64,000 nucleotides of DNA, from positions 1 through 64,000 of IMG/VR virus record IMGVR_UViG_3300005617_000005, one strand, 5' to 3'. The position numbers and the translations under genes were made by a program. A model generated the notes under the pieces. The model was not told the DNA's origin. It saw nothing but the letters and a program-made list of their open reading frames with translations, and made no database searches. The first letter of the stretch is position 1, and the number at the start of each line of letters is the position of its first letter. Below, piece after piece: positions 2,150 through 55,249 of the stretch. This DNA comes from a virus.

Positions 2150-2491
2150 ATGAGCCGTAAGCGCCGACGACGCAACCCCATCACGGGTTCAGCCAAAGTT
2201 CGCTGGAATCCCATCGACACGAAAAAAGTCGTGTGGGCGGTTGGCATCCTCGCCGGCGCCGGCGCCCTCGGCACCATCATCTACTTTGCAACGAAGAAGA
2301 AAGAGCCCGAGCTCACGACGAACGAGGCGACACCTCCGACCCCCTCGACGGTCACGCCCGCAAAAGATTCGCACGCCGTAGCACCGACGCGATCGACCCC
2401 CCAGGGAGCAGCATCCGAAGCGCCGATGGCGTTCGCGCAGGCTCTTCGCTACTCGCCGCCGCCACTCAATCCTGACACCGGCGATTACTGA
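2150..2491 (+). CDS. Small membrane protein with Arg-rich-NP leader
   Basis: MSRKRRRRNP, then TM VVWAVGILAGAGALGTIIYFATKKK. TACACT lies 6 nt upstream of the ATG. Confidence 0.8.
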   Translation: MSRKRRRRNPITGSAKVRWNPIDTKKVVWAVGILAGAGALGTIIYFATKKKEPELTTNEATPPTPSTVTPAKDSHAVAPTRSTPQGAASEAPMAFAQALRYSPPPLNPDTGDY

Positions 2492-2500
2492 GGCGCGCCC

Positions 2501-3544
2501 GTGCGGCTGCCGCGAATCGTCAACCGTCTTCGCTGGTCGCGCTTGTCGCCGACTGAGAAGAAAGTTGCGATCGGTCTGGGTGCCGCCAGTGTACTTGGTA
2601 CGATCGTGTACTTCGCTACGCGAAAGAAAGAGCTGACGTTCGCCGAGCTCGCGGCAGCGGTCCCGAACGATCAGCGCATCGCCTACGGAAGCACCATCCA
2701 CGGACAGATGGTGTTCAACGACGCGATCGGGCGCCTCGCACCGCTTCTCGGACAAATGCTCGAAGGCAACATCATCATCATGCAAGATGCTTCGGCGCTG
2801 CGGCGCATCGTCGAGCACCAAGGTGTAAAGGCGTTCAACCTGGCAGTCGGCGCGTTCTATCCCAGCGGCACCTACTCGACGGACGAATTGGCGAATCAAG
2901 CGCACTGCCAAACGATCGCAGCGCAGCTCGTGACCTTGCACGACGATTGGCTCTGGCCGTTCGAGCACACCGTGTATCGCGAGCCGGACATCGTGCAGCC
3001 GCAAACAGGAGCGCGCTACGCCGGCAATCCGATTCCGGTCGATGATCCGCGGTGGCATGAAGCGCGACAAGTGGCGATCAATGCGAGCGTCAACAAGACG
3101 ATGCACGCAATGGACTTCGGCACGGCTGTCGACACGTACAAGGCGCTCACCGGCACGCCGAACCCAGCACCGATGGGCTACCTCTACGTGATGAAAGTGC
3201 CCGCCGAGACACGCGATGCGCTCGCGCGGCTCGCGCGTGACATGGCGGCGAAGAACAACAAAACGCTTCCGACGGTAGACGCCAACAACAAACCGATCCT
3301 CGAGCCGCAACTCACGATCATTCACGCATCAGTCGGTGCGGTGATCGCATCGCAGATGATTGATTTGCTCGAAGGCCCAAACAGCCCGTGCATCCGCAAG
3401 CTCACGCCAGAACTCGTCTTCTCGATGTTCGCCGCAACGCTCGGAACGGTGCTTGGACTCGCGTTCGGGCCCGCTTTGTCCGCAGTCAGCGTTGCGGTTC
3501 AGATCGTGTCGACGATCAACAAGCTCGCGAACCTCTCGAAGTAG
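2501..3544 (+). CDS. Membrane-anchored protein with N- and C-terminal hydrophobic segments
   Basis: N-terminal anchor LGTIVYFATRKKELT is paralogous to that of 2150..2491. Confidence 0.75.
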   Translation: MRLPRIVNRLRWSRLSPTEKKVAIGLGAASVLGTIVYFATRKKELTFAELAAAVPNDQRIAYGSTIHGQMVFNDAIGRLAPLLGQMLEGNIIIMQDASALRRIVEHQGVKAFNLAVGAFYPSGTYSTDELANQAHCQTIAAQLVTLHDDWLWPFEHTVYREPDIVQPQTGARYAGNPIPVDDPRWHEARQVAINASVNKTMHAMDFGTAVDTYKALTGTPNPAPMGYLYVMKVPAETRDALARLARDMAAKNNKTLPTVDANNKPILEPQLTIIHASVGAVIASQMIDLLEGPNSPCIRKLTPELVFSMFAATLGTVLGLAFGPALSAVSVAVQIVSTINKLANLSK

Positions 3545-3560
3545 CGATAGGCTCTCGCAC

Positions 3561-4121
3561 ATGCCCCTCAGGAGTGGCTCGAGCCGGAAGACCATCAGCT
3601 ACAACATCCGGAAGCTACGCCACGAGGGCTACCCCCAGAAGCAAGCGGTGGCAATCGCGATGAACAATGCACGAAGACACCCGACGCGGCGCCGACGCGC
3701 GCGCGAAAACCCGATCAAGAAGACGACGCTCTACTGGATTCTCGGCGGCGTCGGCGTCGTCGGCGTGGGCGGCCTCATCTACTGGCTCGCAACGCGCAAC
3801 AAAACGGCCGCGATGCAGGGCGGCGGAGGCGCACCCCTTCCTCCCCCGCAAGGCGGAGGCGGTGGTGGCGGAGGTGGCGGTGGCGGAGGTGGCGGCTCAC
3901 CGACTCCTGCGGGCCCACCACCGAATCCAGCGAACTACAACGGCGGCGCGAACAACCCGAACTTCGCGAACGACATCAACAAATGGGTGCAAAGCGCGGT
4001 CGGCATCCTCAACACAATCAAAATGGGGAGCGAGACGTTCAACGTTCTCTACTCCACGATCCAAGGCGTGATCGCGCAATTCGGCTTCCTGCTCCCGGCC
4101 AATCCGCTCCCGGTTTTCTGA
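3561..4121 (+). CDS. Membrane protein: phage MPLxxG...KQAVAIA module, RRRRARENP, TM, Gly/Pro linker
   Basis: Start refined to ATG 3561 (TAGGCT 7 nt upstream). TM is YWILGGVGVVGVGGLIYWLATRNK. Confidence 0.8.
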   Translation: MPLRSGSSRKTISYNIRKLRHEGYPQKQAVAIAMNNARRHPTRRRRARENPIKKTTLYWILGGVGVVGVGGLIYWLATRNKTAAMQGGGGAPLPPPQGGGGGGGGGGGGGGGSPTPAGPPPNPANYNGGANNPNFANDINKWVQSAVGILNTIKMGSETFNVLYSTIQGVIAQFGFLLPANPLPVF

Positions 4122-4149
4122 TCGCCAAACGGCGTGATAGGCTCGTCTC

Positions 4150-4386
4150 GTGCGTCGACGAAGGCGTAAGCGCAATCCCAGCGACCATTCGTTTCGCGCG
4201 ATCGCGTGGACGATCGGAATCACCGCGCTCACGGCCGCGACCGGCGCGGTCGTCGTCTGGTACATCAACAAACGGCTCTCGCCGCCTCCGGAAAAACCGG
4301 CGATCGACGTCGAAGTCGGCGGTAAAATTCCCGAAGACATCAAGAACTGGTGGGCACGACAGCCGCCGGGATCACAGGTGGCGTGA
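4150..4386 (+). CDS. Small membrane protein with RRRRRKRNP leader
   Basis: Basic leader, NP, then TM. TAGGCT lies 6 nt upstream of the GTG. Confidence 0.75.
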   Translation: MRRRRRKRNPSDHSFRAIAWTIGITALTAATGAVVVWYINKRLSPPPEKPAIDVEVGGKIPEDIKNWWARQPPGSQVA

Positions 4387-4724
4387 TGCGACGCAAACGA
4401 CGACGAGCTCGACACAACCCGATCCCGACCTACGCGTATTGGATCGCCGGCGCCGTTGGCGTTTCAGCGGTCGGCGGCCTGATCTATTGGCTCGCTACGC
4501 GCAATAAAGCGCCTCAGCTCACCACCCCGAAGAGCACGCCAGCGACATCTTCACCGTCACCGTCGCCGTCGCCTCCGCCCCAAGTACCACCGCAAACCAT
4601 TCCGTCGTCACCGAGCCCGTCACCATCACCGTCGCCTACTCCACCACCATCGCCGTGGGCGGAAGCGCAGTCTCCAGATGTGGGCATGTGGCGCCTCGCA
4701 ACGGCAACTCAATTCTCGCAGTAA
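4386..4724 (+). CDS. Small membrane protein with RRKRRRARHNP leader and Pro/Ser-rich tail
   Basis: TGATG overlap with the previous gene. TM ends GGLIYWLATRNK, identical to 3561..4121. Confidence 0.8.
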   Translation: MRRKRRRARHNPIPTYAYWIAGAVGVSAVGGLIYWLATRNKAPQLTTPKSTPATSSPSPSPSPPPQVPPQTIPSSPSPSPSPSPTPPPSPWAEAQSPDVGMWRLATATQFSQ

Positions 4725-4733
4725 GAGGGCAAT

Positions 4734-6353
4734 TTGTTCACCGCAGCCGACGACGCAAAATTGGGCGTGAAGGTGGTGCATTCGCGGTACCCCGACGGCG
4801 AAGAGGGCATCCAAAAGTCGCTCGCGACGATCTGCCAAAAGATTCGCGACGGCGCACCGACCGCTGCGATGAAGAGCTTTGCAGCAAACGTCATGCGGGA
4901 GTACGGACTCCCGACGGGCGCCCGAGCGCAGGGTGCAGCCGCGCTCGATCACATCCGAAAAAACGTGCTCTACGCACCGGACGCGCTCGGGACGGAGCAG
5001 ATTCAAAGCGCCAACATCACACTTTGCGTAGAAGGTGCACCGATCTGCATTCCATGCGGCGACTGCGATGATCTCGTCACGGCGCTCGGCACCGAGCTCG
5101 CTGCGCTCGGGCTCGAGGTCCGCGTCGTGCGCCAGATTTTCGGCGGCGGCCACCAGCAACACGTGCTCATCGAGGTCAAAGACGAGGACGGGATGTGGTT
5201 CCCGCTCGATCCTTCGAGCAAGACGATGCCGGCGGGCCAGAAGGTTCCTGCACAAGAAGAGACGTACCACTCACCGTTCGACGACGCGCCGCCGGGCGCG
5301 CAGTTCGTCGGCATCGGCGCTCTACCGATGTTCCGAGCTGTCGGGCGTTTCGAGGACGATGGATCACAACAGGTCTGGAAACACGAGCGGTGGGAGCAGA
5401 TCGGGCTCGGAGCACCGCTCGAACAGGTCGCGGCTTCGTGCTGCTCCGCGTGTGATAAGAAGAAGGAAGACGCGATGACGCATCACGAGCAGCGACCGCA
5501 CTTCAGCCGACCGAGCAGCGGATTCGGCGCACCGTGGCCGGGCGTGACGGCGTTCGTGCCGCAATGGGCATGGCTCCGGCAGTTCTGGCCCGCGTTCGAT
5601 GCGCAAAGTCGCTCGTGGGAGGACACGATTCACGCCGCGTACCTGCGCGGCGAGGCAAAGAAGTGGGTCCCGAACGATCCGGTCTCGCGAAGCGATCTCA
5701 CCGCGTTGATTCTCGCGTCGGCATTCTCGGCTCGAGCCGTCTCCACGATGCCCGACCAGGGTCTCCGCGCATCAGATGCGTTGAACCGCACCTGGTACAT
5801 CATCGCCGAGAAGCTCGGGTACACGCCCGACACGACGATCGACTCGCTCAAGTCGCGCGTCCAGAAAGAGCAAAACCCAACGACGGCCGCGGCGCAGATC
5901 GCTCTCTTCGAGCTCCTCATCATCGTCGTCTACGTTGCAGCGCTCGCGGTCGTGTACTGCTTCGCCATCTACTTCGCGGCGAAGATCATTGACTCGCTAC
6001 TCGCGCGAATCGTTGCGTTCGCCGAGCTGATCTATCTCCAGATCCAGGTGCAGAAGATCGTCGATCGGCATCTTGCTGATCCGAACCTTCCGTGGACCGA
6101 CGCTGAAAAGAAGATGCTCGACAACCTCGAAGCATTGCAGCGCGGCGCGCACAACGCGGTGACCGCTGCACCCGCGCTCACACCACCGGGCAGTGACGAA
6201 ACACCGGCGTGGGTCTGGATCGGTGGCGGTGTCGTGGTCGTCGGCGGCGTGCTCGCGATCGTCTACAGAGACGAGATCAAGCGTTGGCTCAACAGGTCCT
6301 CGCACAAACAGCTATCGGCGGGCGAAGCGCGTCGACGCAGGAGAGCAGCATGA
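4734..6353 (+). CDS. Transglutaminase-like (Cys-His-Asp) protease domain fused to a membrane-associated C-terminal region
   Basis: GDCDD, QHVLIEV and WFPLDPS motifs in transglutaminase-core order. Hydrophobic helices and a basic tail lie C-terminally. Confidence 0.8.
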   Translation: MFTAADDAKLGVKVVHSRYPDGEEGIQKSLATICQKIRDGAPTAAMKSFAANVMREYGLPTGARAQGAAALDHIRKNVLYAPDALGTEQIQSANITLCVEGAPICIPCGDCDDLVTALGTELAALGLEVRVVRQIFGGGHQQHVLIEVKDEDGMWFPLDPSSKTMPAGQKVPAQEETYHSPFDDAPPGAQFVGIGALPMFRAVGRFEDDGSQQVWKHERWEQIGLGAPLEQVAASCCSACDKKKEDAMTHHEQRPHFSRPSSGFGAPWPGVTAFVPQWAWLRQFWPAFDAQSRSWEDTIHAAYLRGEAKKWVPNDPVSRSDLTALILASAFSARAVSTMPDQGLRASDALNRTWYIIAEKLGYTPDTTIDSLKSRVQKEQNPTTAAAQIALFELLIIVVYVAALAVVYCFAIYFAAKIIDSLLARIVAFAELIYLQIQVQKIVDRHLADPNLPWTDAEKKMLDNLEALQRGAHNAVTAAPALTPPGSDETPAWVWIGGGVVVVGGVLAIVYRDEIKRWLNRSSHKQLSAGEARRRRRAA

Positions 6354-8169: not shown

Positions 8170-8337
8170 CTATGTGGGCGAACCCGAAGCGCCACCGGCG
8201 GCGCCGCCTTGCGCGATGCCCTTGGCCGTATCCGACGTCGGAAGGCTCTTCGGGCGGATGAAGAGAAAGTAGACGGCCGTCCCTACAATTCCGAGGCCGC
8301 CAACCACCAAAAGTGCCTTCTTCGTCGACTTCTTCAT
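8170..8337 (-). CDS. 55-aa single-TM protein (absent from the ORF track)
   Basis: Hand translation: MKKSTKKALLVVGGLGIVGTAVYFLFIRPKSLPTSDTAKGIAQGGAAGGASGSPT. TAGTGT lies 6 nt upstream. Confidence 0.7.
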   Translation of the reverse strand: MKKSTKKALLVVGGLGIVGTAVYFLFIRPKSLPTSDTAKGIAQGGAAGGASGSPT

Positions 8338-8439: not shown

Positions 8440-10083
8440 GTGGCCAGCTACAGCGAGATCATGGCAAAGCAGCGTGACGCTGCACCCGATCACGCCGCAG
8501 CGTCGCGCAAACGCGTACCGGTCCTTCATGCAGACGAGAGGAAAAAAATGAAGCGCAAGCGACGAGCAACGAAAGCCCAGCTTCGGGCGCTCAAGAAAGC
8601 TCGAGCGGCGAAGCGCCGCAAGCACGCCGGCGAGGGCGTCGTCCGTCGCGCGAAGAGCGGCAAGTTCTCGAAGCGCGGCAAACACATTGCCGGTCGCGTC
8701 GGTGCGGAAGCACGTCGTCGTCGGCGAGGAAAGAAGCGTCGTCGCAGCGCGCGCGAGGCAGCACCGCCGCGCACGAAGCGAAACCGCGCAGCCACGAAGG
8801 CGCAGAAGCGCTATTTGCGCGCCGCACGCAAGGCGAAAAAGCGCCGGAACACGTCGTCGCAGAAGGAGCTTCTGGCCGCGATCCGCGGATTGAAGCCCTA
8901 CGCACCTCGTCGCAAGAAGCGAAAAAAGGGCAAGCGACGCAGTGGCAAGAGCACCAAGCGCTTGACGAAGCGCACGAAACGCGCTTCGCTACGGAAAGCG
9001 AGCACTCGTGCGGGGATGTCGAGGCGTTCAGCGAAAAAGAGGAAGAGCATGGCCCGCAAGAGGAAAAAGTCAGGTCGTCGTCGCAAGGGACATCGTCGCG
9101 CCACGAAGAAACAACTTCGTGCGCTCTCGAAGGCGCGTGCTCAGCGCAAGCGCAACTTGCGCCGCGGTCGTGGCCGTCGCCATCGAGTGAAGGGCTACGT
9201 CGCTCGTCGGCGCAAGTCGCGTTGGCGAGTTCCGTCGCACCTCTCGCGAGAGGCGCGTCGTCGTCGCCACGCGCACGCATTCGACAACCCGATGGACGGG
9301 ATCGAGTTCGGCATCGCGCTCTTCACCGGTCTCATCGGCTACGGCGCGATGAGCTTCGGTCGCCGCTACCTCGCTGCTCACCGACCGGAGGCGAGCGGAT
9401 CGCTTTCGGGCGTGATGGCGATGGAGCTCGCACCGATGGATTGGAAGCAGTGGTTGCTCGGCGCCGTTCTCACGATCGGTCCGACAGTCGGCGGCCACTT
9501 CATCAAGAACAAACCGCTTCGCAGCGTCGTCCAGGGCTTCGGCTTTGGCGCCGGCATCGCGACCGCGGGCAAAGCGCTCGACGACGGCATCGCCATGCTC
9601 ACGAAGAAGACCGAGCTCGGCGCGCTGCTCTACGCGCCGGAAGTTTCGGCGCAGGCGTACACCAAGCCGCAAGGCACGGGCGCCGGCGCTCTTCCGGAAG
9701 GCGAGTGCGAAACGTGCGGGCGCAGCGACGGTCTCGGCAAGTGCTGCCGTTCGTCGTACACGGGCGCACCGAACCGCATGGACGTGCGAGACAACCCGCC
9801 GTCCGTTCCTCCGGCGCAAGCCCAACCCCCGATCGAGGCACCGCCGCCCGTCGTCAACAACATGACGCCGCGTGACATCCCCGTGCCGCCGGCGCCTCCT
9901 CCGCCGCCGCAGATCGCGCAACCGCAGACGCCGACGTTCACGCCGCAAGTGCCCATCGGGCAAGCGTCGCCGAGCCCGGTGCCCGCAGCACCGATGCCGC
10001 AATCGCCGATCGTCGGCGTGCGTGGCTTCCCGAACAGGATCGCCGGACCCAACTACAACTGGGGCAACCCGAGCGACAACTGA
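8440..10083 (+). CDS. Very Arg/Lys-rich (protamine-like) putative core protein with membrane segments and Pro-rich tail
   Basis: About 250 aa of R/K-rich sequence, then AFDNP, hydrophobic helices, a CxxC...CC cluster and a Pro-rich C-terminus. Alternative start at ATG 8548 (GAGAGG upstream). Confidence 0.75.
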   Translation: MASYSEIMAKQRDAAPDHAAASRKRVPVLHADERKKMKRKRRATKAQLRALKKARAAKRRKHAGEGVVRRAKSGKFSKRGKHIAGRVGAEARRRRRGKKRRRSAREAAPPRTKRNRAATKAQKRYLRAARKAKKRRNTSSQKELLAAIRGLKPYAPRRKKRKKGKRRSGKSTKRLTKRTKRASLRKASTRAGMSRRSAKKRKSMARKRKKSGRRRKGHRRATKKQLRALSKARAQRKRNLRRGRGRRHRVKGYVARRRKSRWRVPSHLSREARRRRHAHAFDNPMDGIEFGIALFTGLIGYGAMSFGRRYLAAHRPEASGSLSGVMAMELAPMDWKQWLLGAVLTIGPTVGGHFIKNKPLRSVVQGFGFGAGIATAGKALDDGIAMLTKKTELGALLYAPEVSAQAYTKPQGTGAGALPEGECETCGRSDGLGKCCRSSYTGAPNRMDVRDNPPSVPPAQAQPPIEAPPPVVNNMTPRDIPVPPAPPPPPQIAQPQTPTFTPQVPIGQASPSPVPAAPMPQSPIVGVRGFPNRIAGPNYNWGNPSDN

Positions 10084-10206: not shown

Positions 10207-11673
10207 ATGCAGAAGATCACGCAAGAGCGCAGCCGTCCCGAGCCGACCCGAAGCATCAACCGCACCCCGATCGTCAATCGGATCAAGGTCGACAAGGACC
10301 TTCGTGACCGACGCACGATCGGTCTCGGCGTGCGCCCCGACGAGAGCAAGCTGAAGGCGGCGAACGCCGGCCTCGGCAAGCTCAAGGACGGACACATGCC
10401 CGATCCGAAGGAGCTCGGACTCGGCGCTCCGTTCAAGGGCGGCGAAGGCGCGCCCCCGATCGCGTCGCAGATCGTTCGTCGTGGCCTCGGCGATTTCGTC
10501 GACGCCATCCGCAACTCGGTCGCGTGCCCGATCTGGAACATGCCGGTCGTCGAGAGCTCGCGCGGCACCTTCGGTGGCCCGCTGCTCGACACGGACATCA
10601 CCCGCCTCTTCGGAGCGAGGATCAATCCGTTCGGCTGGAACGACACGACCGAGGGTCTCGACTCGTTCGACACCACGCTCGCGGAGAACGGCAAGACGCA
10701 GACGGCGATGCTCGTTTGCGCGGTCGGCTGGAAGCTCCAGCCCGAGCCGCTCTGCTTCACGCAGGAGATCAACGCGTGGACGGCGCCGGAGTCGACGGCG
10801 ACGCAGCCGTTCTCGCCGAACAACTTCACCACGAACGACCTCGCTGCGATCCTCGGCCAAGCCGTGGACACGCAGGACTTCGAGCCCGCCGTGCTCGAGT
10901 GGGGCTGGCCGCAGAACTACGCGTGCTGGCACATGGTCCGTGGCTACCACCTCCGCTGGATGGTCGGTCAGCACACGAACATCTTCGACGAGTCGCTCCG
11001 CAACACCGCGGTGATGCCGACGAACGCGCAAGAGGGCTCGGCGTCCTCGAGCGAGGTCGACATCAACGAGTTCATCCGTCGGGTGAACGACCGGTACACG
11101 GGTACCGGCGGTCTCGGCAGCAACATGGTCGCCCTCAAGTTCGACACGATCCGCCTCGGCGTCGTGGCGGGCGGTGGCAACGTCGGTCGCTTCGCTCCGT
11201 CGCGTACGGGCGAGCTCGCTGGCGCGACCTACGGCGGCATGGACCTCCGCAGCTTGCTCAAGAACAACGACGAGTTCCGCAAGCTCACGATCCCGTACTT
11301 CCTCAACGCGGCGATCCCGATCGGGCTCTTCGCGCAGGAGTCGGACAAGTTCCAGGCGGACATCATGCGCGCGTACCTCTCGGCGACCCAGTCGCCGGGC
11401 AACGCGGGCGGAACCGTTCCCCCGGCGATCGTCGACGCGGCGAACATCGCGCTCGGCCCGACGTCGGCGTTCCTCGAACGCACGATGGATGGCGCTGCGG
11501 ACGTCTCGCAGACCGTCTTCTCGCAGCGACGCCTGTTCAAGGGTGGCGATCTCAAGGTCGAGGTCGACATCAAGGGCTTCGAGGTCGACGAGGACTGGTA
11601 CAACGTCCTCAAGAACAACCCGGAGCTCCGGGACGCGTTCATGTGCGAGTGCGGCTGCGGCTGGCCGAAGTGA
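10207..11673 (+). CDS. Putative major capsid protein (non-HK97; jelly-roll type inferred)
   Basis: 488 aa with very strong G/C-ending codon bias, central in the virion module and bracketed by twin hairpins. Four GLG motifs lie in the first ~95 aa. Fold not verified. Confidence 0.55.
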   Translation: MQKITQERSRPEPTRSINRTPIVNRIKVDKDLRDRRTIGLGVRPDESKLKAANAGLGKLKDGHMPDPKELGLGAPFKGGEGAPPIASQIVRRGLGDFVDAIRNSVACPIWNMPVVESSRGTFGGPLLDTDITRLFGARINPFGWNDTTEGLDSFDTTLAENGKTQTAMLVCAVGWKLQPEPLCFTQEINAWTAPESTATQPFSPNNFTTNDLAAILGQAVDTQDFEPAVLEWGWPQNYACWHMVRGYHLRWMVGQHTNIFDESLRNTAVMPTNAQEGSASSSEVDINEFIRRVNDRYTGTGGLGSNMVALKFDTIRLGVVAGGGNVGRFAPSRTGELAGATYGGMDLRSLLKNNDEFRKLTIPYFLNAAIPIGLFAQESDKFQADIMRAYLSATQSPGNAGGTVPPAIVDAANIALGPTSAFLERTMDGAADVSQTVFSQRRLFKGGDLKVEVDIKGFEVDEDWYNVLKNNPELRDAFMCECGCGWPK

Positions 11674-41811: not shown

Positions 41812-42579
41812 ATGGGTAGCCCGTCCGAAAAAGAAGCCGATCTCCAAGCACGTGTCGAACGCCTCGAGCAACTGCTCGCGATCTTGCAAGGCCAGAGCGG
41901 TGCTCTCGGATTGCAAACGCCCGGCGCGGCGCGCAACGTCATCAACTCCGCACTGCCCGCGTACACGTACTCGAACGGTGTGATCACCGGCAACGCAGTC
42001 GGCGCGATGGGCGCGAAGGACGGCGTGCTCAACGTCGCGAACGACGTCGTCTTCCTCCCTGGAGGAATCGCGGTCGTCGCATCGCAGCAAGGTGCGTACG
42101 TCGTCACCAACCCCGGAAGCGCGACCGAAGCGTTCGTGCTCACGCGCGTTTCGTGGATGCCCGAGGGCGCCACCATCAAAACCGGCTACCTCGTCCGCAT
42201 GGGCGGTGAGGGCACCGTCTTCCAGAACACCGTTTGGGAGTCGATGGCCGTTGCAGAAGAGTTCGTGGTCGGCGCGATCGACTCGCAGTTCTTCCCGCAG
42301 AAGGTCGAGATTCGAGCGCAGCTCGTGGGTGGACAAATCGCCGGTCTCGCGACCGTGCCGATTCTCTCGACGAGCAGCTACATCGGCCTCACGCGCGCGG
42401 TGTTCGACACCGGCGCGGCGACGGTCATGTACGCCGCAACTGTCGGTGGCGTCGAAGGCATCACGCCCGGCTATCTCGGAACCGCAGCGCTCACCGTCCA
42501 AGCGGTCATCGCGGCAGGCACGATCAACGCGGCCGACGTTTCGACGCTGCACATCCTGATCACCAACGGCCAGCGCTAA
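41812..42579 (+). CDS. Putative spike/fibre protein with N-terminal coiled-coil module
   Basis: MGSPSEKEADLQARVERLEQLLAILQG; promoter TTGCGT-N18-TATTCT-N6-ATG. Confidence 0.65.
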   Translation: MGSPSEKEADLQARVERLEQLLAILQGQSGALGLQTPGAARNVINSALPAYTYSNGVITGNAVGAMGAKDGVLNVANDVVFLPGGIAVVASQQGAYVVTNPGSATEAFVLTRVSWMPEGATIKTGYLVRMGGEGTVFQNTVWESMAVAEEFVVGAIDSQFFPQKVEIRAQLVGGQIAGLATVPILSTSSYIGLTRAVFDTGAATVMYAATVGGVEGITPGYLGTAALTVQAVIAAGTINAADVSTLHILITNGQR

Positions 42580-42617: not shown

Positions 42618-44360
42618 ATGGGCGCACCGAACGAGAAAGAATCCGACCTCCGAGCTCGTGTCGAACGGCTCGAGCACCTCCTCGCCATGTTGCAGGGAGG
42701 CAGTGCACCGGGTCAGACCTTTGCCGGTCCCATCGTCGCGAACGAAGCGGCAATGGTCGCGCTCACCGGCATTCAAGACGGTGAGCAGGTCTTCGTTCTG
42801 AGCCACCGCTCGATCTGGACGAAGCGAAACGGCGTCGCCGGCACACAAGGTGTCCCGCCGCTCTTTCCACACGAGGTCGATCAAGCCACCGACCTCACCG
42901 GCGTCTTTGCCCGAACGCCATATTCCGATCCCGCGCTCCGTACCGGCATCAACGACGTCTTCATCGATCCGGCGAATCCAGCGGCAGACGATGAGAATGA
43001 TGGCCTCACTGCGCTGACACCGCTCGCGACAGGCTACGAGCTTTTCCGCCGCTGGGGTTGGGGCGCATCGAAACCGATCGTTGGACCAAACCTCGCGACG
43101 TCGCCCGACGGTTTCACAAACGTCCACATTCAAAGCGCCATCCTTTCGCCCGACACGCTTCCGGTGCGCATCACGATCGCGACCAACGGCAGCATGCGCT
43201 TCATTGGCGGCGCGCCGACGACGATTCGCGCGGGAACACTCACCGCTGCGAGCGTCGCAATGAATGCGGCAGTACCGCTCGGGGGAACGCGCCTTCGACT
43301 CACCGACGCCGCTGTCGTTTCGTGGGTCCCGGACATGGCCCCGAATCGTCGCGGTCGAATCACAACGGGGGCGCAAGCCGGCGCGACCTTCCAACCACAA
43401 AGCAATGTCGGAGCTGGCGGCGCTGTCGATTGCAGCGCAGCGCAAACAACCAACGAGCCGGGCTTCAGCCAAGTGCCGACGACCGTCACGCCGGCTGCGG
43501 GCAGTGCCTACGTGATCGAAGCGCTCGTGCAGTGCAACTTCGGTCAAGTGGAGATCACGCAAGAGCAAAATCCTGATTTCGGTGGGTTCAACAGCTTCAT
43601 CAACTTCATCGATCTGAATTTCCCCGTCATCGGAACAAACGCTGTCGGGTGGGAACCCGTCACGGCAGCGGGCACATTCAGCCAACCGTTCTTCAATTTC
43701 TACCAGTGCACGTTCGAGCGAAACCTCGATGTCACCTCGTGCTCCTCCGTGCAGCTCATCGCTTGCTACTTCTTCAACATGCTCGTGCTCAACTACTGCA
43801 CGGGCGGCATTCAAGCGGTCAACGGCGGTGGGATGAATTCCATCGCGCCTGGCGTCTCGGGCGTCAAATGGGCGGCGGTCAGTGATCAGAGCTTGCTCGA
43901 TTTCAACTTCGTCGCGAACCACTCCCTGATCAACCTGATGGGGAATTCGGTCGGAGGCGGGTTCGCGTCGTGGAACGCTGACACTCTTGCCGGGTACAAC
44001 ACCGCAGGGCACGGCGTGATCGTCGGCGTTCGAGGCTTCGCAGGAATGCGCGCGCAAGTCACCTTCGCCAGACTCGTTTGGGGAAACGGCAACGCTGGCG
44101 CCGGTCTTCTCATCGGTGCGAATTGCAATGGAACCGGCGCGCCACAAAACATCACCGGGGTACAGAGCGACTTCAAGCTCGGCAACAAGCTCGTCGGTTG
44201 GTGGTTCAACGATGCGACGGCGGCGTACAATCCGATCGGCGGTAGCGTCGCGACGACATGGGCAGCTCTCGCAGCGGCCGAAGGTGCAGCGGGCTTCGGC
44301 GGAAACGCCCACGAGCTCGACTCGAACAGCCACTTTGCCGCAGCCGAGACGACAGCGTAA
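42618..44360 (+). CDS. Putative receptor-binding spike (beta-helix-like) with the same N-terminal module
   Basis: MGAPNEKESDLRARVERLEHLLAMLQG; FIDPANPAADDENDGLT motif; N/G/F-rich C-terminal half. Confidence 0.65.
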   Translation: MGAPNEKESDLRARVERLEHLLAMLQGGSAPGQTFAGPIVANEAAMVALTGIQDGEQVFVLSHRSIWTKRNGVAGTQGVPPLFPHEVDQATDLTGVFARTPYSDPALRTGINDVFIDPANPAADDENDGLTALTPLATGYELFRRWGWGASKPIVGPNLATSPDGFTNVHIQSAILSPDTLPVRITIATNGSMRFIGGAPTTIRAGTLTAASVAMNAAVPLGGTRLRLTDAAVVSWVPDMAPNRRGRITTGAQAGATFQPQSNVGAGGAVDCSAAQTTNEPGFSQVPTTVTPAAGSAYVIEALVQCNFGQVEITQEQNPDFGGFNSFINFIDLNFPVIGTNAVGWEPVTAAGTFSQPFFNFYQCTFERNLDVTSCSSVQLIACYFFNMLVLNYCTGGIQAVNGGGMNSIAPGVSGVKWAAVSDQSLLDFNFVANHSLINLMGNSVGGGFASWNADTLAGYNTAGHGVIVGVRGFAGMRAQVTFARLVWGNGNAGAGLLIGANCNGTGAPQNITGVQSDFKLGNKLVGWWFNDATAAYNPIGGSVATTWAALAAAEGAAGFGGNAHELDSNSHFAAAETTA

Positions 44361-44368
44361 GGAGAGTC

Positions 44369-45826
44369 ATGGGTACCTATCGAGAAGCAATTCAGCATGC
44401 GCGCGTAGGCGGTACGGCGCGCTGCGGCGGCAAAGAGATTCGGTTTCTCACCTTCGAGGAAGCGGAGCCGATCATCTTGGATGCAATCCCATCGCGTCGA
44501 ACGGTTATCGGCGCAAATGGAAAACCGCTTATCGAGGACACCAAGATCGTGGTCGAGACGTTCGCTGACCCGAACTTCGACACGAAGAAGTTCGGTCTCT
44601 ACGACGTTGGCGTACACCCTGCCGCTCCGTTCACTCCAAGCGACGAGGACATCTACCTTCCCCTCGAGCACGATGACGAGGGCAATCCGAAGCCGCGCGC
44701 GCTTCGAGCCGACTGGGAGCTTCTCAGCGACGAAAAACCTGAAGTCGTCGAGCCCGAAGTCGTCGCACCCGAAGTCGTCGACGAGGCGCTCAGCGAAACG
44801 ATCCCCGAAACACTCGGCGCGATCGACACGGAGCCACCGCAATGATTCAGGTCGGCGACATACTTCTCCTCACGGACACGGCCACACTCGTCCAAGTCAT
44901 CGACGGCAACGATGACGACGGATGGGATTGTCTCAACGAGCAGCACGGCGTGCTCTTCAAGATCGGCGACACCGCTGCACTGCAAGCGCAAGCCACTTTC
45001 GGTGCAACGCCCGAGGCCGATCGCCCGGCGCCCGGCACGCTCGTTTGCACGTTTGCGTCGAAGCCTACCGCGAAGTGGAACCTCGACGGCTACGCGACAA
45101 CCCCCGCATTCGGCCCCGGTCAGATTTGGGCCGTTCTCACCAACATCGACGACCCCACGATCTCGTGCTTCGTCGATCAAAACAGCATTTTCCTTCCATC
45201 CGGTGCGCCATGAACGACAAACAGAAAAAGTGCTCTGGCTTCCCCGGCAAGCCGGGCGAATGCAAAGCGGCAGCGACCGCCGTGGTGATCCGCGCGCGCC
45301 AGCACGTGTGTGAGGAGCACGCGAAGCAGGCCGAAGCCAAAAAGTTCCAAGCGCAGCGCGCGGAGAAAAAGTCATGACCACGCTTGGACAGTTCGTAGGC
45401 TTCGCGGGACGAAGCGTCGGTTCCGTGATCGACGGATCGGGCACGGACGCTGATCCGTGGAAGTTCGAGTTTCAGAGCAAGGACGGCGGCTCCACCTCCG
45501 TGGAGGTCCGCGACGAGACGGGCTTCTACTTCGAGTACATTCCGCTGCTCGACACGCCAGCCGGCTATCACGCCGCAGGTGATCTCGTCGACTTCAGGCC
45601 CGTCGAAGCAGTCTTTCAAGGCTTCGTCGGCGGTCCCTACCCCAAGGGCGTCGTCTCGCGAACGCTTCAGGTCTTCGGCTGGGTGAACTACACCTTCCAC
45701 TACAACGGCGAGGCGTATCCGAACACGACCGATCCGTACGCTGTCCTCGCAGATCCCGACAACGCGGGCTGCTACATTCTCGCCAATCTCCTCGAGCTCG
45801 AAAATCTCACGCCCGTCGCCGCATGA
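44369..45826 (+). other. Small hypothetical genes in the spike region (44369-44845, 44842-45213, 45210-45377, 45374-45826)
   Basis: Coupled ORFs. Confidence 0.6.
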
Positions 45827-47214
45827 TGACCCCCAACGAGCTCGCCAGGCTCGAGCGGCTCGAGTTGCTCGTTGGCCTTCTCCAGAATTCATCTGGAATC
45901 GAGCCGCTCATCGGCGACGTCAACGGCCCGAGCAACGCGAACGCGCTCACGCAGATTGCCGCTCTCGCCGGCGGCGGCAACCAGCTCGTCGGCGTGGACA
46001 ACGCCGGCTTCATCACTGTCGGTGTCGTCCCGCCGCCCGGCCCACAAGCAATGGGTGGCGACGTCACGGGCACCACGGCTGCCAGCGTCATCTCGAAAAT
46101 CCAAGCGCTCGCGGGCGGTGGTGTTCGCTTCGTAGCGGTCGACAACGCCGGCAACGTCGGCACGGCGGTTCCGCCCGCGCCGCCGGCGAACTACCCGATG
46201 GGTGGCGACGTCACGGGCACCACCAGCGCCTCCACCGTCGTGAAGATCAACGGCGCTTCCGTACCTGTTTCCGGCGCGCTCACGACAGGCAATCTTCTGC
46301 AAGTCACGGGAGCAGCGGCACTCGGCTACGCGGCGCTCAACCTTGCAGGCGGAGCCAACTTCGTCACCGGCGTTTTGCCGGAAGCGAATCAAGCCGATCA
46401 GACCATGGGCGGCGACGTCACTGGCTCGACGAGCGCTGCGACCGTCGTCAAGGTCAACGGTGCGACCGTCCCGGCAGCCGGCGCACTGACTCCTGGCAAC
46501 TCGCTGCTCGTCACGGGTGCAGGCGCGCTCGGCTACGGCGCAGTGAATCTCGCTGGCGGTGCAGCGTCCGTCACCGGCGTCCTTCCCGAGGCGAACCAGG
46601 CCGACCAAACGATGGCCGGCGACGTCACGGGTTCAACAGGCGCGAGCGTTCTCTCGAAGATTGCGGCACTCGGTGGAAGCGGCACGGTTGCCGTCAACGT
46701 AGACAACGCAGGCAATGTCATCTCGGGCGGCGCGCCGGCGACGGCCGATCCGTTTGCTTTTCTCTCGACAACCACGGACAACCTCGTCGCATCGTCGGCG
46801 GTGAAGAACTACGACTTCGATCTCTCGGGCGCTGCGTTCACGAACAAGCTGATCCGCATGCGTGCGCGTGGCTACGCGACGACGAAAGACACGGGCGGCG
46901 TTGCGGGTGCGAACCTTACGGGCAGCGCGCACGTGCAGACCGATGCGGTCTACGAGAACAAGAACGGCACGGTGACGTTCGTGTCGGCTGCCGCCGGCGG
47001 CGCCGCGAACCCGATGCCGGCAGTCAACAACGAGATGACCCTTCAACCGCAAGCATGCGATGCGGCGCTTCAGTCGGGCGGCGGCGCGCCTCCCAACCTC
47101 GCGTGGACGGTAACGGGCGGAACGACCGCGCGCTTACAGCTCACGGCTACGAACAACGTGAACCGCGGAAGCTGGGAGATCGACGTATACCAACGCGTGA
47201 AGGCGGCTCCATGA
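45823..47214 (+). CDS. Fibre protein with GDVTG repeats
   Basis: Four M[GA]GDVTG repeats plus IGDVNG; N-terminal LARLERLELLVGLLQ. Confidence 0.7.
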   Translation: MMTPNELARLERLELLVGLLQNSSGIEPLIGDVNGPSNANALTQIAALAGGGNQLVGVDNAGFITVGVVPPPGPQAMGGDVTGTTAASVISKIQALAGGGVRFVAVDNAGNVGTAVPPAPPANYPMGGDVTGTTSASTVVKINGASVPVSGALTTGNLLQVTGAAALGYAALNLAGGANFVTGVLPEANQADQTMGGDVTGSTSAATVVKVNGATVPAAGALTPGNSLLVTGAGALGYGAVNLAGGAASVTGVLPEANQADQTMAGDVTGSTGASVLSKIAALGGSGTVAVNVDNAGNVISGGAPATADPFAFLSTTTDNLVASSAVKNYDFDLSGAAFTNKLIRMRARGYATTKDTGGVAGANLTGSAHVQTDAVYENKNGTVTFVSAAAGGAANPMPAVNNEMTLQPQACDAALQSGGGAPPNLAWTVTGGTTARLQLTATNNVNRGSWEIDVYQRVKAAP

Positions 47215-54593: not shown

Positions 54594-54824
54594 TTACGCC
54601 GTCAACGACTTACGCTTGAGTAGAAACTCTGCCATCGAGATGACATTCGGGAACAACGGCTTCCGCAGCGGAGGAGCCCCGATGCCGGTCTTCGCGCGGT
54701 CCTTGTCGCTCATGTTCTTGTAGGCCCAGATGGCGACGCCACCGACGACGATCGCGCTCAACACGATCCAGTACGTCACGGCCGGGTCACTCGGGTTGTG
54801 CCTTCGCTTGCGCCGATGCCTCAT
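54594..54824 (-). CDS. Small membrane protein with RHRRKRRHNP leader
   Basis: Same leader/TM design as the 2-4.7 kb genes; TAGCCT lies 6 nt upstream. Confidence 0.75.
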   Translation of the reverse strand: MRHRRKRRHNPSDPAVTYWIVLSAIVVGGVAIWAYKNMSDKDRAKTGIGAPPLRKPLFPNVISMAEFLLKRKSLTA

Positions 54825-55249
54825 GAAGGGAGGCTAGCATGCTTCAGCCGCTCTTTGAGCGTGTCGATCGCTTGTTGCGTTTGCTTCGCGAGCGAATCGA
54901 GCTGAGGAGCGACGGGATCGGCTGGGCGCTCGCGGAGAAGCTCGTTCGCGGCTTCGTACAAACAACCCTTGGCGTCTTCGAGCTCGCGGATGGCCCACTC
55001 AATGGTTTGTTTTTTCATTGTTACCCCACTCGTGGAGTGCTTCACGAAGAACGTTGAGCTTGGCCGGCACACCGCTCACGTTGCCGACAAGCGACGAGCC
55101 CGTGTGGTTGATGAGCACGATCACGATATCGGAGTGGCCCGACGCGTGCGGATCGACGCTAGTACGAACGATTTCAGCAATTCGCTCGGCAGCGCTCTCG
55201 CGATTGGCTTGGCAGTCGCACCGCTCGGCGAGTGAGTGACTCTTCTTTT

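Follow-up and report, generated by a model that had tools for sequence, protein, structure and literature searches.

Why does one virus place a run of arginines, followed at once by the dipeptide Asn-Pro (NP), ahead of the membrane helices of several of its proteins? The question arises from positions 1 to 64,000 of IMG/VR virus record IMGVR_UViG_3300005617_000005, a 64-kb stretch referred to here as the window. A sequence-only reading of this DNA had described a family of Arg-rich-NP-transmembrane leaders on otherwise unrelated proteins and proposed a virus-specific sorting or cleavage tag; its own refuting alternative was that NP would not be conserved and that positive-inside bias or a recent duplication would explain the pattern. 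We found, contrary to that alternative, a real and virus-associated tag in which NP is kept in homologues. The Arg-run Asn-Pro unit is an undescribed, conserved tag in this virus and hundreds of relatives, perhaps one that marks a site of cutting or docking.

The motif and the proteins that carry it

Six-frame and open reading frame analysis recovered all six instances reported earlier (in proteins A, C, D, E, F and G), although some of the positions first given mark the start of a reading frame rather than the motif (3561 for C; G starts at 54824, not 54594). The carriers, together with two anchors of the window that do without the motif (B and H), are as follows.

2150..2491, plus strand: protein A, 113 amino acids, with MSRKRRRRNP at its N-terminus (Arg/Lys run and NP at nucleotides 2156-2179), a second NP at residues 20-21, a Gly-rich transmembrane helix at about nucleotides 2231-2296 and then a Pro/Thr/Ser-rich tail
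2501..3544, plus strand: protein B, 347 amino acids, a paralogous N-terminal anchor whose helix ends IVYFATRKK, without Arg run or NP; it has an orthologue in L003
3561..4121, plus strand: protein C, 186 amino acids, with a phrog_2423 domain (nucleotides 3561-3701, the first 47 residues, E 5e-16), RRRRARENP (nucleotides 3687-3713, residues 43-51), a transmembrane helix (about nucleotides 3729-3797), a poly-Gly linker and a small C-terminal domain
4150..4386, plus strand: protein D, 78 amino acids, with a GTG start, (M)RRRRRKRNP (NP at nucleotides 4174-4179) and a transmembrane helix
4386..4724, plus strand: protein E, 112 amino acids, with the leader MRRKRRRARHNP (RRKRRRARH-NP, NP at nucleotides 4416-4421), a transmembrane helix ending LIYWLATRNK and a Ser/Pro-rich tail; its ATG overlaps the TGA stop of D (TGATG)
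8170..8337, minus strand: protein H, 55 amino acids, a Gly-rich N-terminal anchor with a short MKKSTKK-type leader, without Arg run or NP
8440..10083, plus strand: protein F, 547 amino acids, with the internal motif RRRRHAHAFDNP (AFD-NP, NP at nucleotides 9286-9291, residues 283-284); a protamine-like Arg/Lys-rich domain of about 280 residues is followed by NP, a helical hydrophobic domain, a Cys motif and a Pro-rich tail
54594..54824, minus strand: protein G, 76 amino acids, starting at 54824 with MRHRRKRRHNP (NP at nucleotides 54792-54797), followed by a transmembrane helix

In all six window instances a hydrophobic, Gly-rich helix of about 21-23 residues follows within 3-9 residues; in A this gap is 17 residues for the first NP and 6 for the second. 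The ending IY[WF](L)AT[RK]xK noted earlier is present in A, C and E (and in B, which has no Arg-NP) and is lacking in D, F and G. No further copies occur in the remaining 14 kb of the genome. The dipeptide is not enriched across the 139 predicted proteins (55 observed versus 42 expected), and in each of the six proteins with at least four basic residues in the 10-12 residues before an NP a helix begins directly behind it. The copies use different codons for Asn, Pro and Arg, which places the selection at the level of the protein. A, C, D, E and F all lie in the module upstream of the capsid candidate, so that one short motif recurs at the joints of several particle-module proteins; G sits outside it, among small minus-strand genes, and has orthologues P0180 and P0216.

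To call the carriers otherwise unrelated overstates their diversity. The small carriers A, C, D, E and G are paralogues from a family that arose by tandem duplication, with mostly low-complexity tails (37-70% Pro/Ser/Thr/Gly/Ala), and leader-plus-helix identities reach 48% over 90 amino acids for C-E, with 35% for A-E, 33% for A-B, 37% for D-G and 44% for E-G. The leader and helix of F have no significant similarity to those of the small proteins; where F does match one of them significantly (E-F), the similarity is in Pro-rich tails. In F, the motif forms the joint between the protamine-like basic domain and the helical membrane domain.

The small carriers resemble type II (N-in) signal anchors, with a basic N-flank, one helix of about 21-23 residues, no signal-peptidase site and a body presumably on the far side. 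Counted by hand, the net charge comes to about +6 to +7 in the N-flanks and to about 0 to +3 over the 15 residues behind the helix, and this excess of positive charge before a single membrane-length helix would place the Arg-run Asn-Pro unit on A, C, D, E and G as a portable extension on the cytoplasmic face. Unlike type II anchors, which have one to four basic residues, these proteins have six to nine consecutive Arg/Lys residues and an invariant Asn-Pro, with tail and NP gained or lost as a unit.

Arginines ahead of an N-terminal hydrophobic stretch also recall twin-arginine translocation (Tat) signal peptides, and the lack of a Tat consensus reported earlier holds: the Arg runs continue as N-P and never as x-F-L-K, with no (S/T)-R-R-x-F-L-K and no A-x-A site. 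Instead of a short h-region, there is a membrane-spanning helix of about 21-23 residues that ends in an aromatic residue plus Thr/Lys/Arg and is followed by basic residues. Tat membership was rejected on both counts. A dual translation start of the holin/antiholin style was also rejected, as Met follows NP in only a few members, and so was a 2A-like skipping site, as there is no Gly-Pro after NP and the viruses are of bacterial type.

TANNNT boxes (TACACT, TAGGCT, TAGGCT and TAGCCT) stand 6-7 nucleotides ahead of the starts of A, C, D and G, respectively, which suggests leaderless transcripts that would start at the start codon of the Arg run:

2138-2149, 3548-3560 and 4138-4149, plus strand: TANNNT boxes ahead of A, C and D
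54825-54836, minus strand: TANNNT box ahead of G

Conservation and modular gain and loss

Relatives were gathered by capsid-based searches, yielding ten IMG/VR loci and 33 metagenome loci with a capsid identity of 37-52%, across which the particle module is syntenic. NP is present in all of about 25 distinct F orthologues, down to 37% capsid identity and with variable flanks, the junction consensus being [A/Y/G]-[M/L/F]-[E/D]-N-P-[L/M/I/V]-x-G-x-E. The N-domains of these orthologues comprise 170-350 residues with 31-48% Arg/Lys and 1-6% Asp/Glu, a composition that is protamine-like (at least 30% Arg/Lys with few acidic residues) and points to a putative role in DNA condensation. Some F orthologues (L006 9047-9106 and L037 8762-8830) have two NPs 16-18 residues apart with a short stretch rich in Arg between them; cutting at both would release a small basic product resembling mu of adenovirus. 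Orthologues of A, C and D in several loci retain the Met, the Arg run, NP and the helix.

A leader profile of 44 positions, built from 20 seed leaders that all contain NP and searched at E <= 0.001 in 1.84 billion representatives, matched 262 clusters at 50% identity, a count that measures abundance rather than unbiased conservation because the profile itself contains NP. Nearly all are proteins of 50-290 amino acids with the module at residues 1-45. Among the listed matches, 141 were scored by script as basic-flanked NP: the position two before Asn is Arg or Lys in 92%, the position just before Asn is Glu (40%), Arg (29%) or Lys (77% for the three together), Pro is followed by Ser, Thr, Leu or Ile, and the helix starts 0-8 residues downstream. 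About 20 of the 141 have an additional domain of 40-70 residues ahead of the Arg run. The tag has so far been seen only in metagenomic or viral sequence. Pfam and PHROG searches with the leader proteins and ten longer family members returned no family except phrog_2423 on the N-terminus of C, and a search with the C-terminal part of C, aimed at orthologues unbiased towards NP, returned only three close relatives. Searches of the literature on virion cleavage at Asn-Pro in phages, on transglutaminase-like enzymes of membrane phages and on Arg-rich anchors turned up nothing on an Arg-run Asn-Pro motif. An IMG/VR scan for (CGN)5-AAY-CC gave, among the matches listed, mostly out-of-frame noise in GC-rich DNA (a helix followed the motif in 1 of 80) and is unusable as an enrichment test; it was the source of two further loci, L063 and L106.

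These data bear on the simplest account, in which the motif has no special function and reflects the positive-inside rule plus a recent tandem duplication. The tandem paralogy of A-E, with C and E 48% identical, fits such an account, and basic N-flanks are universal in signal anchors. However, NP also persists in F, which has a leader and helix without homology to those of A-E, and it persists in orthologues whose capsids are 37-52% identical and in hundreds of clusters, encoded by different codons; the relatives are not near-identical copies. Six to nine consecutive basic residues are also far beyond the needs of topology, for which short MKKSTKK-type leaders suffice. We regard this account as having next to no likelihood.

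Not every anchor of this virus group carries the tag. A profile of the helix alone, run on the loci, found the same Gly-rich helix in both N-terminal and C-terminal anchors. By manual count, NP is present in 21 of about 24 N-terminal anchors with an Arg run (20 of these 21 being seeds of the profile) and in none of nine with a short MKKSTKK-type leader. The sequences indicate that Arg run and NP are gained and lost together. Residues after NP often resemble a short leader, as in NP-V-MKKST of L009, so the Arg-NP unit looks like an add-on. The second leader type, M-K-K/R-S/T-T-K, stands right before the same helix in place of Arg-NP in some relatives (it is found in H and in the L004, L008, L010 and L011 loci). 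In the C-terminal anchors, the helix is followed by a poly-Lys/Arg end, mirroring the N-terminal class (window 6230-6353; L004, L007, L008, L010, L012 and L030).

This optional presence argues against NP being needed merely to start the helix. It also argues against the main idea of the sequence-only reading, an obligatory signal by which proteins would be sorted to the viral membrane. A sorting role would suit a conserved tag, so far metagenomic or viral only, that is common to several membrane proteins clustered in the virion module. Yet syntenic anchors in L004/L005, L011 and L012, like B and H in the window, do without Arg run and NP, complete relatives have between zero and five fully tagged small anchors (0 to 5 or 6 tags per complete genome), G lies outside the virion module, and in F and C the tag is internal rather than N-terminal. 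Obligatory sorting is thus improbable, whereas the other half of the earlier proposal, a role in cleavage, is plausible given the flexible junction and the adjoining, co-conserved and membrane-anchored Cys-His-Asp enzyme described below.

The same grammar, basic-x-Asn-Pro at joints between independently occurring modules, is also found where there is no membrane helix. It is seen in C, in the L003 orthologue of C and in L106; of other viral genomes, the pattern was checked in L063 and L106. The small phage protein family phrog_2423 has basic-NP on both sides of it in L106; its domain is missing from the L003 orthologue of C, which keeps MARRRENP, and modules are exchanged exactly at the NP joint, as for phrog_2423 in C versus L106. 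Neighbouring proteins in L106 end in NP and then an Arg tail, and in L063 eight Arg-rich peptides split by NP precede a hydrophobic Gly-rich domain, resembling F. A soluble RadC-like JAB protein of 492 amino acids (genome 75154-76632; L168 11154-12632) has RRAAENP about 35 residues before its JAB domain. In the tagged anchors, by contrast, what comes behind the seam is a membrane anchor, and ahead of it there is often no more than Met and an Arg run.

Joints without a membrane helix matter for the main rival to the processing seam favoured below, the possible, if rather doubtful, explanation that the tail is never cut and acts as an electrostatic tether, a permanent Arg tail clamping the anchor to DNA, anionic lipids or an acidic scaffold, with NP as a helix-breaking hinge or cap. 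Asn-Pro makes a good helix start, with the NPA boxes of aquaporins as precedent. NP always lies 0-8 residues before the helix, and in a model of F the helix begins three residues after it. The C-terminal anchors have their poly-Lys/Arg tails straight after the helix without NP, so membrane-adjacent polybasic tails are a general design in this virus group. However, Ser, Thr or Asp would cap as well, yet no such replacement occurs in the approximately 25 F orthologues; short-leader anchors do without NP; the residues after NP in the small proteins form no consistent capping box; and basic-NP is also found at the joints of soluble modules and ahead of C-terminal Arg tails, places with no helix for it to cap.

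The Asn-Pro junction and a candidate reader

An AlphaFold2 model of the junction and membrane part of F, based on 24 sequences, has residues 1-39 at low confidence, with NP at 36-37 and a predicted local distance difference test score (pLDDT) of about 52-61 around it. The first helix spans residues 40-66 at pLDDT above 90, and more helices extend to residue 161. A low-confidence NP stretch ahead of a confident helix indicates an exposed seam, and the model places NP in a flexible joint three residues before the helix rather than in a folded autoproteolytic turn.

That placement weighs on an enzyme-free route, in which Asn-Pro would cleave itself through a succinimide. RsgI and FlhB are examples of Asn-Pro self-cleavage (PMC10328401, PMC3430611). 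With the asparagine-lyase type of FlhB/YscU (NPTH loop), reovirus mu1 (Asn42-Pro43) and RsgI, the window proteins share the scissile dipeptide, and Asn-Pro bonds are intrinsically prone to such chemistry; moreover, the released N-terminal piece of mu1 acts on membranes. In those proteins, however, the site lies in a folded domain, where a turn holds NP in a fixed catalytic environment, whereas here NP is predicted to lie in a flexible, low-confidence and Arg-rich linker, has variable neighbours and is not followed by Thr-His. Self-cleavage therefore seems very improbable to us.

A more attractive candidate for reading the seam is encoded directly after A-E:

4734..6353, plus strand: transglutaminase-fold protein, 539 amino acids (transglutaminase core PF01841, E 1.4e-4, narrowly short of the Pfam cut-off)

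This putative enzyme keeps Cys111-His143-Asp159 as an invariant triad across 16 orthologues. The protein lacks a signal peptide and ends in two hydrophobic helices and an RRRRR tail, so its catalytic domain should share the face of the Arg tails. A profile of the protein matched five of five records that carry basic-NP proteins, against none of ten viral records used as controls (58-131 kb). The five are three tested relatives plus G006 and G007, the records of L106 and L063, which had been found only by the DNA pattern. In both of the latter the triad aligned with the profile, and no capsid homologue was detected. In G006, the transglutaminase-fold gene again comes after NP-seamed genes, and its product ends in the same kind of C-terminal anchor. 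The RadC-JAB protein, considered as an alternative reader, is present in the three tested relatives and was not found in the incomplete records G006 and G007; it is not favoured.

We tentatively favour the explanation that proteins are processed at NP, the seam being read by an enzyme of the virus. The transglutaminase-fold protein next door is the most likely reader, and its action would free poly-Arg peptides and the protamine-like domain of F. The Arg run, unable to cross the membrane, would remain on the same face as the basic domain of F and the tethered catalytic domain, where it could bind a polyanion, be it the genome, anionic lipids or an acidic neighbour protein. The invariant Asn-Pro, in a flexible linker 0-8 residues from the helix, would serve as the mark for a virus-encoded enzyme, the Cys-His-Asp protein being the likeliest, and cutting at maturation would detach the short poly-Arg peptides and the protamine-like domain of F from their membrane anchors. 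The Arg tails must stay on the cytoplasmic face, a side turned to the capsid, rather than the DNA, when assembly is of PRD1 type and to the core when the envelope is of budding type. That the basic part faces the DNA, as suggested earlier, is possible, as F has its protamine-like domain of 170-350 residues on that side.

Several points weigh against enzymatic processing. Cleavage at NP is itself a step that we infer from sequences and a model, and a Pro right after the scissile bond is tolerated by few proteases. G is outside the virion module. The most distant relatives (L011 and L012) keep NP only in F, with none on the small anchors detected in their loci, and the cluster count, as noted, speaks to abundance. 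Co-occurrence with the enzyme rests on two records beyond close relatives, and these two have the anchor style and the gene order in common, so they may be distantly related and not separate lineages. Finally, a role as an entry peptidase acting on the cell wall, as a deamidase or as a cross-linker would suit the transglutaminase-fold enzyme just as well.

The virus and known systems comparable to the tag

The window covers the start of a record that is 77,874 bp long and has a 50-bp terminal repeat, and one gene spans both ends, so the genome is circular or permuted; its source is an uncultured soil virus of about 78 kb, circularly permuted, with a GC content of about 62%. Recognisable genes encode a tyrosine integrase, a C5 methylase, helicases of superfamily 1 (SF1) and SNF2 type, a D5-type primase-helicase, a Prim-Pol, PolA fused to a uracil-DNA glycosylase (UDG), ThyX, RadC-JAB and a GH25 muramidase. 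A scan of genome contigs matched two short contigs from metagenome-assembled genomes, one of Polyangiaceae and one of Chloroflexota, and the host may be a member of the Myxococcota or another soil bacterium.

The presumed particle module occupies the first 23 kb and is almost without Pfam or PHROG match. Neither a terminase nor a portal was found in the 77.9-kb genome, which encodes a HerA/FtsK-type ATPase (DUF87, AAA_10; genome 68277-70172, L168 4277-6172), a combination that fits non-tailed packaging. The capsid candidate (488 amino acids, 10207-11673), whose gene looks highly expressed, has more than 187 metagenomic homologues, all unnamed, and no sequence match in Pfam, PHROG or the Protein Data Bank (PDB). 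Its AlphaFold2 model is beta-rich (pLDDT 76), and its best structural neighbours by VIA-align are the jelly-roll capsid proteins of the membrane-containing viruses HHIV-2, SPV1, P23-77 and HCIV-1, at Z 5-6 only, which is a suggestive hint rather than decisive. Foldseek returned only papillomavirus L1 rows, judged meaningless. A tailless jelly-roll virus with a membrane is plausible from this model, and the particle probably contains a membrane.

Other features of the genome were noted. The N-terminus of the capsid candidate (10207-10480, the first ~92 residues) is mostly modelled at low confidence, with pLDDT below 50 at residues 1-42, 56-60 and 71-92, and contains conserved G-x-G motifs in which G39 is invariant and G41 nearly so. 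Directly upstream of A, a protein of 533 amino acids (525-2126), kept in L003, begins and ends with long stretches of poly-Glu/Asp and is rich in Arg and Asp in between; it could be an acidic partner or scaffold for the Arg tails. Three proteins (41812-42579, 42618-44360 and 45823-47214) share an N-terminal coiled-coil-like segment, ExDLxARVERLExLLAxLQG, ahead of different bodies, and may be alternative fibres or spikes on a common adaptor.

Several viruses use a similarly short motif at the joints of several particle proteins as a maturation code: the capsid-targeting sequence plus L/I-x-E of T4, S/A/G-x-E of phiKZ, (M/I/L)XGX-G on pVII and mu of adenovirus, and Gly-Gly-X of African swine fever virus. 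Basic DNA-condensing parts made as precursors would be a further parallel, cleavage being putative here, and a candidate for a virus protease is encoded in the structural module. In contrast, basic-x-Asn-Pro matches none of these codes, and the candidate enzyme has a transglutaminase fold rather than being of the adenain, Ulp1 or herpes/T4 type.

A broader proposal, which we offer as speculation and think rather unlikely, is that basic-x-Asn-Pro is a new maturation code of a very large assemblage of uncultured prokaryotic viruses, in which a membrane-tethered transglutaminase-fold enzyme acts on Asn, either cutting Asn|Pro, with poly-Arg peptides and protamine-like protein delivered onto the genome, or making Lys-Asn isopeptide cross-links that staple membrane proteins to core or capsid. 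The membrane-anchored version of the tag would fix the seam on one membrane face beside a candidate enzyme on the same face, which makes the hypothesis directly testable. If the seam is read by an enzyme, hundreds of uncultured virus lineages would share a code for processing or cross-linking that is new among viruses and unusual in its bond specificity, with Pro following the scissile bond. Such a code would also offer an easy rule, based on sequence, for spotting membrane proteins and proteins of the particle interior in viral dark matter. Even if it is never cut, a portable unit of poly-Arg and Asn-Pro that membrane anchors gain and lose represents an undescribed way to tie a viral membrane to a polyanion.

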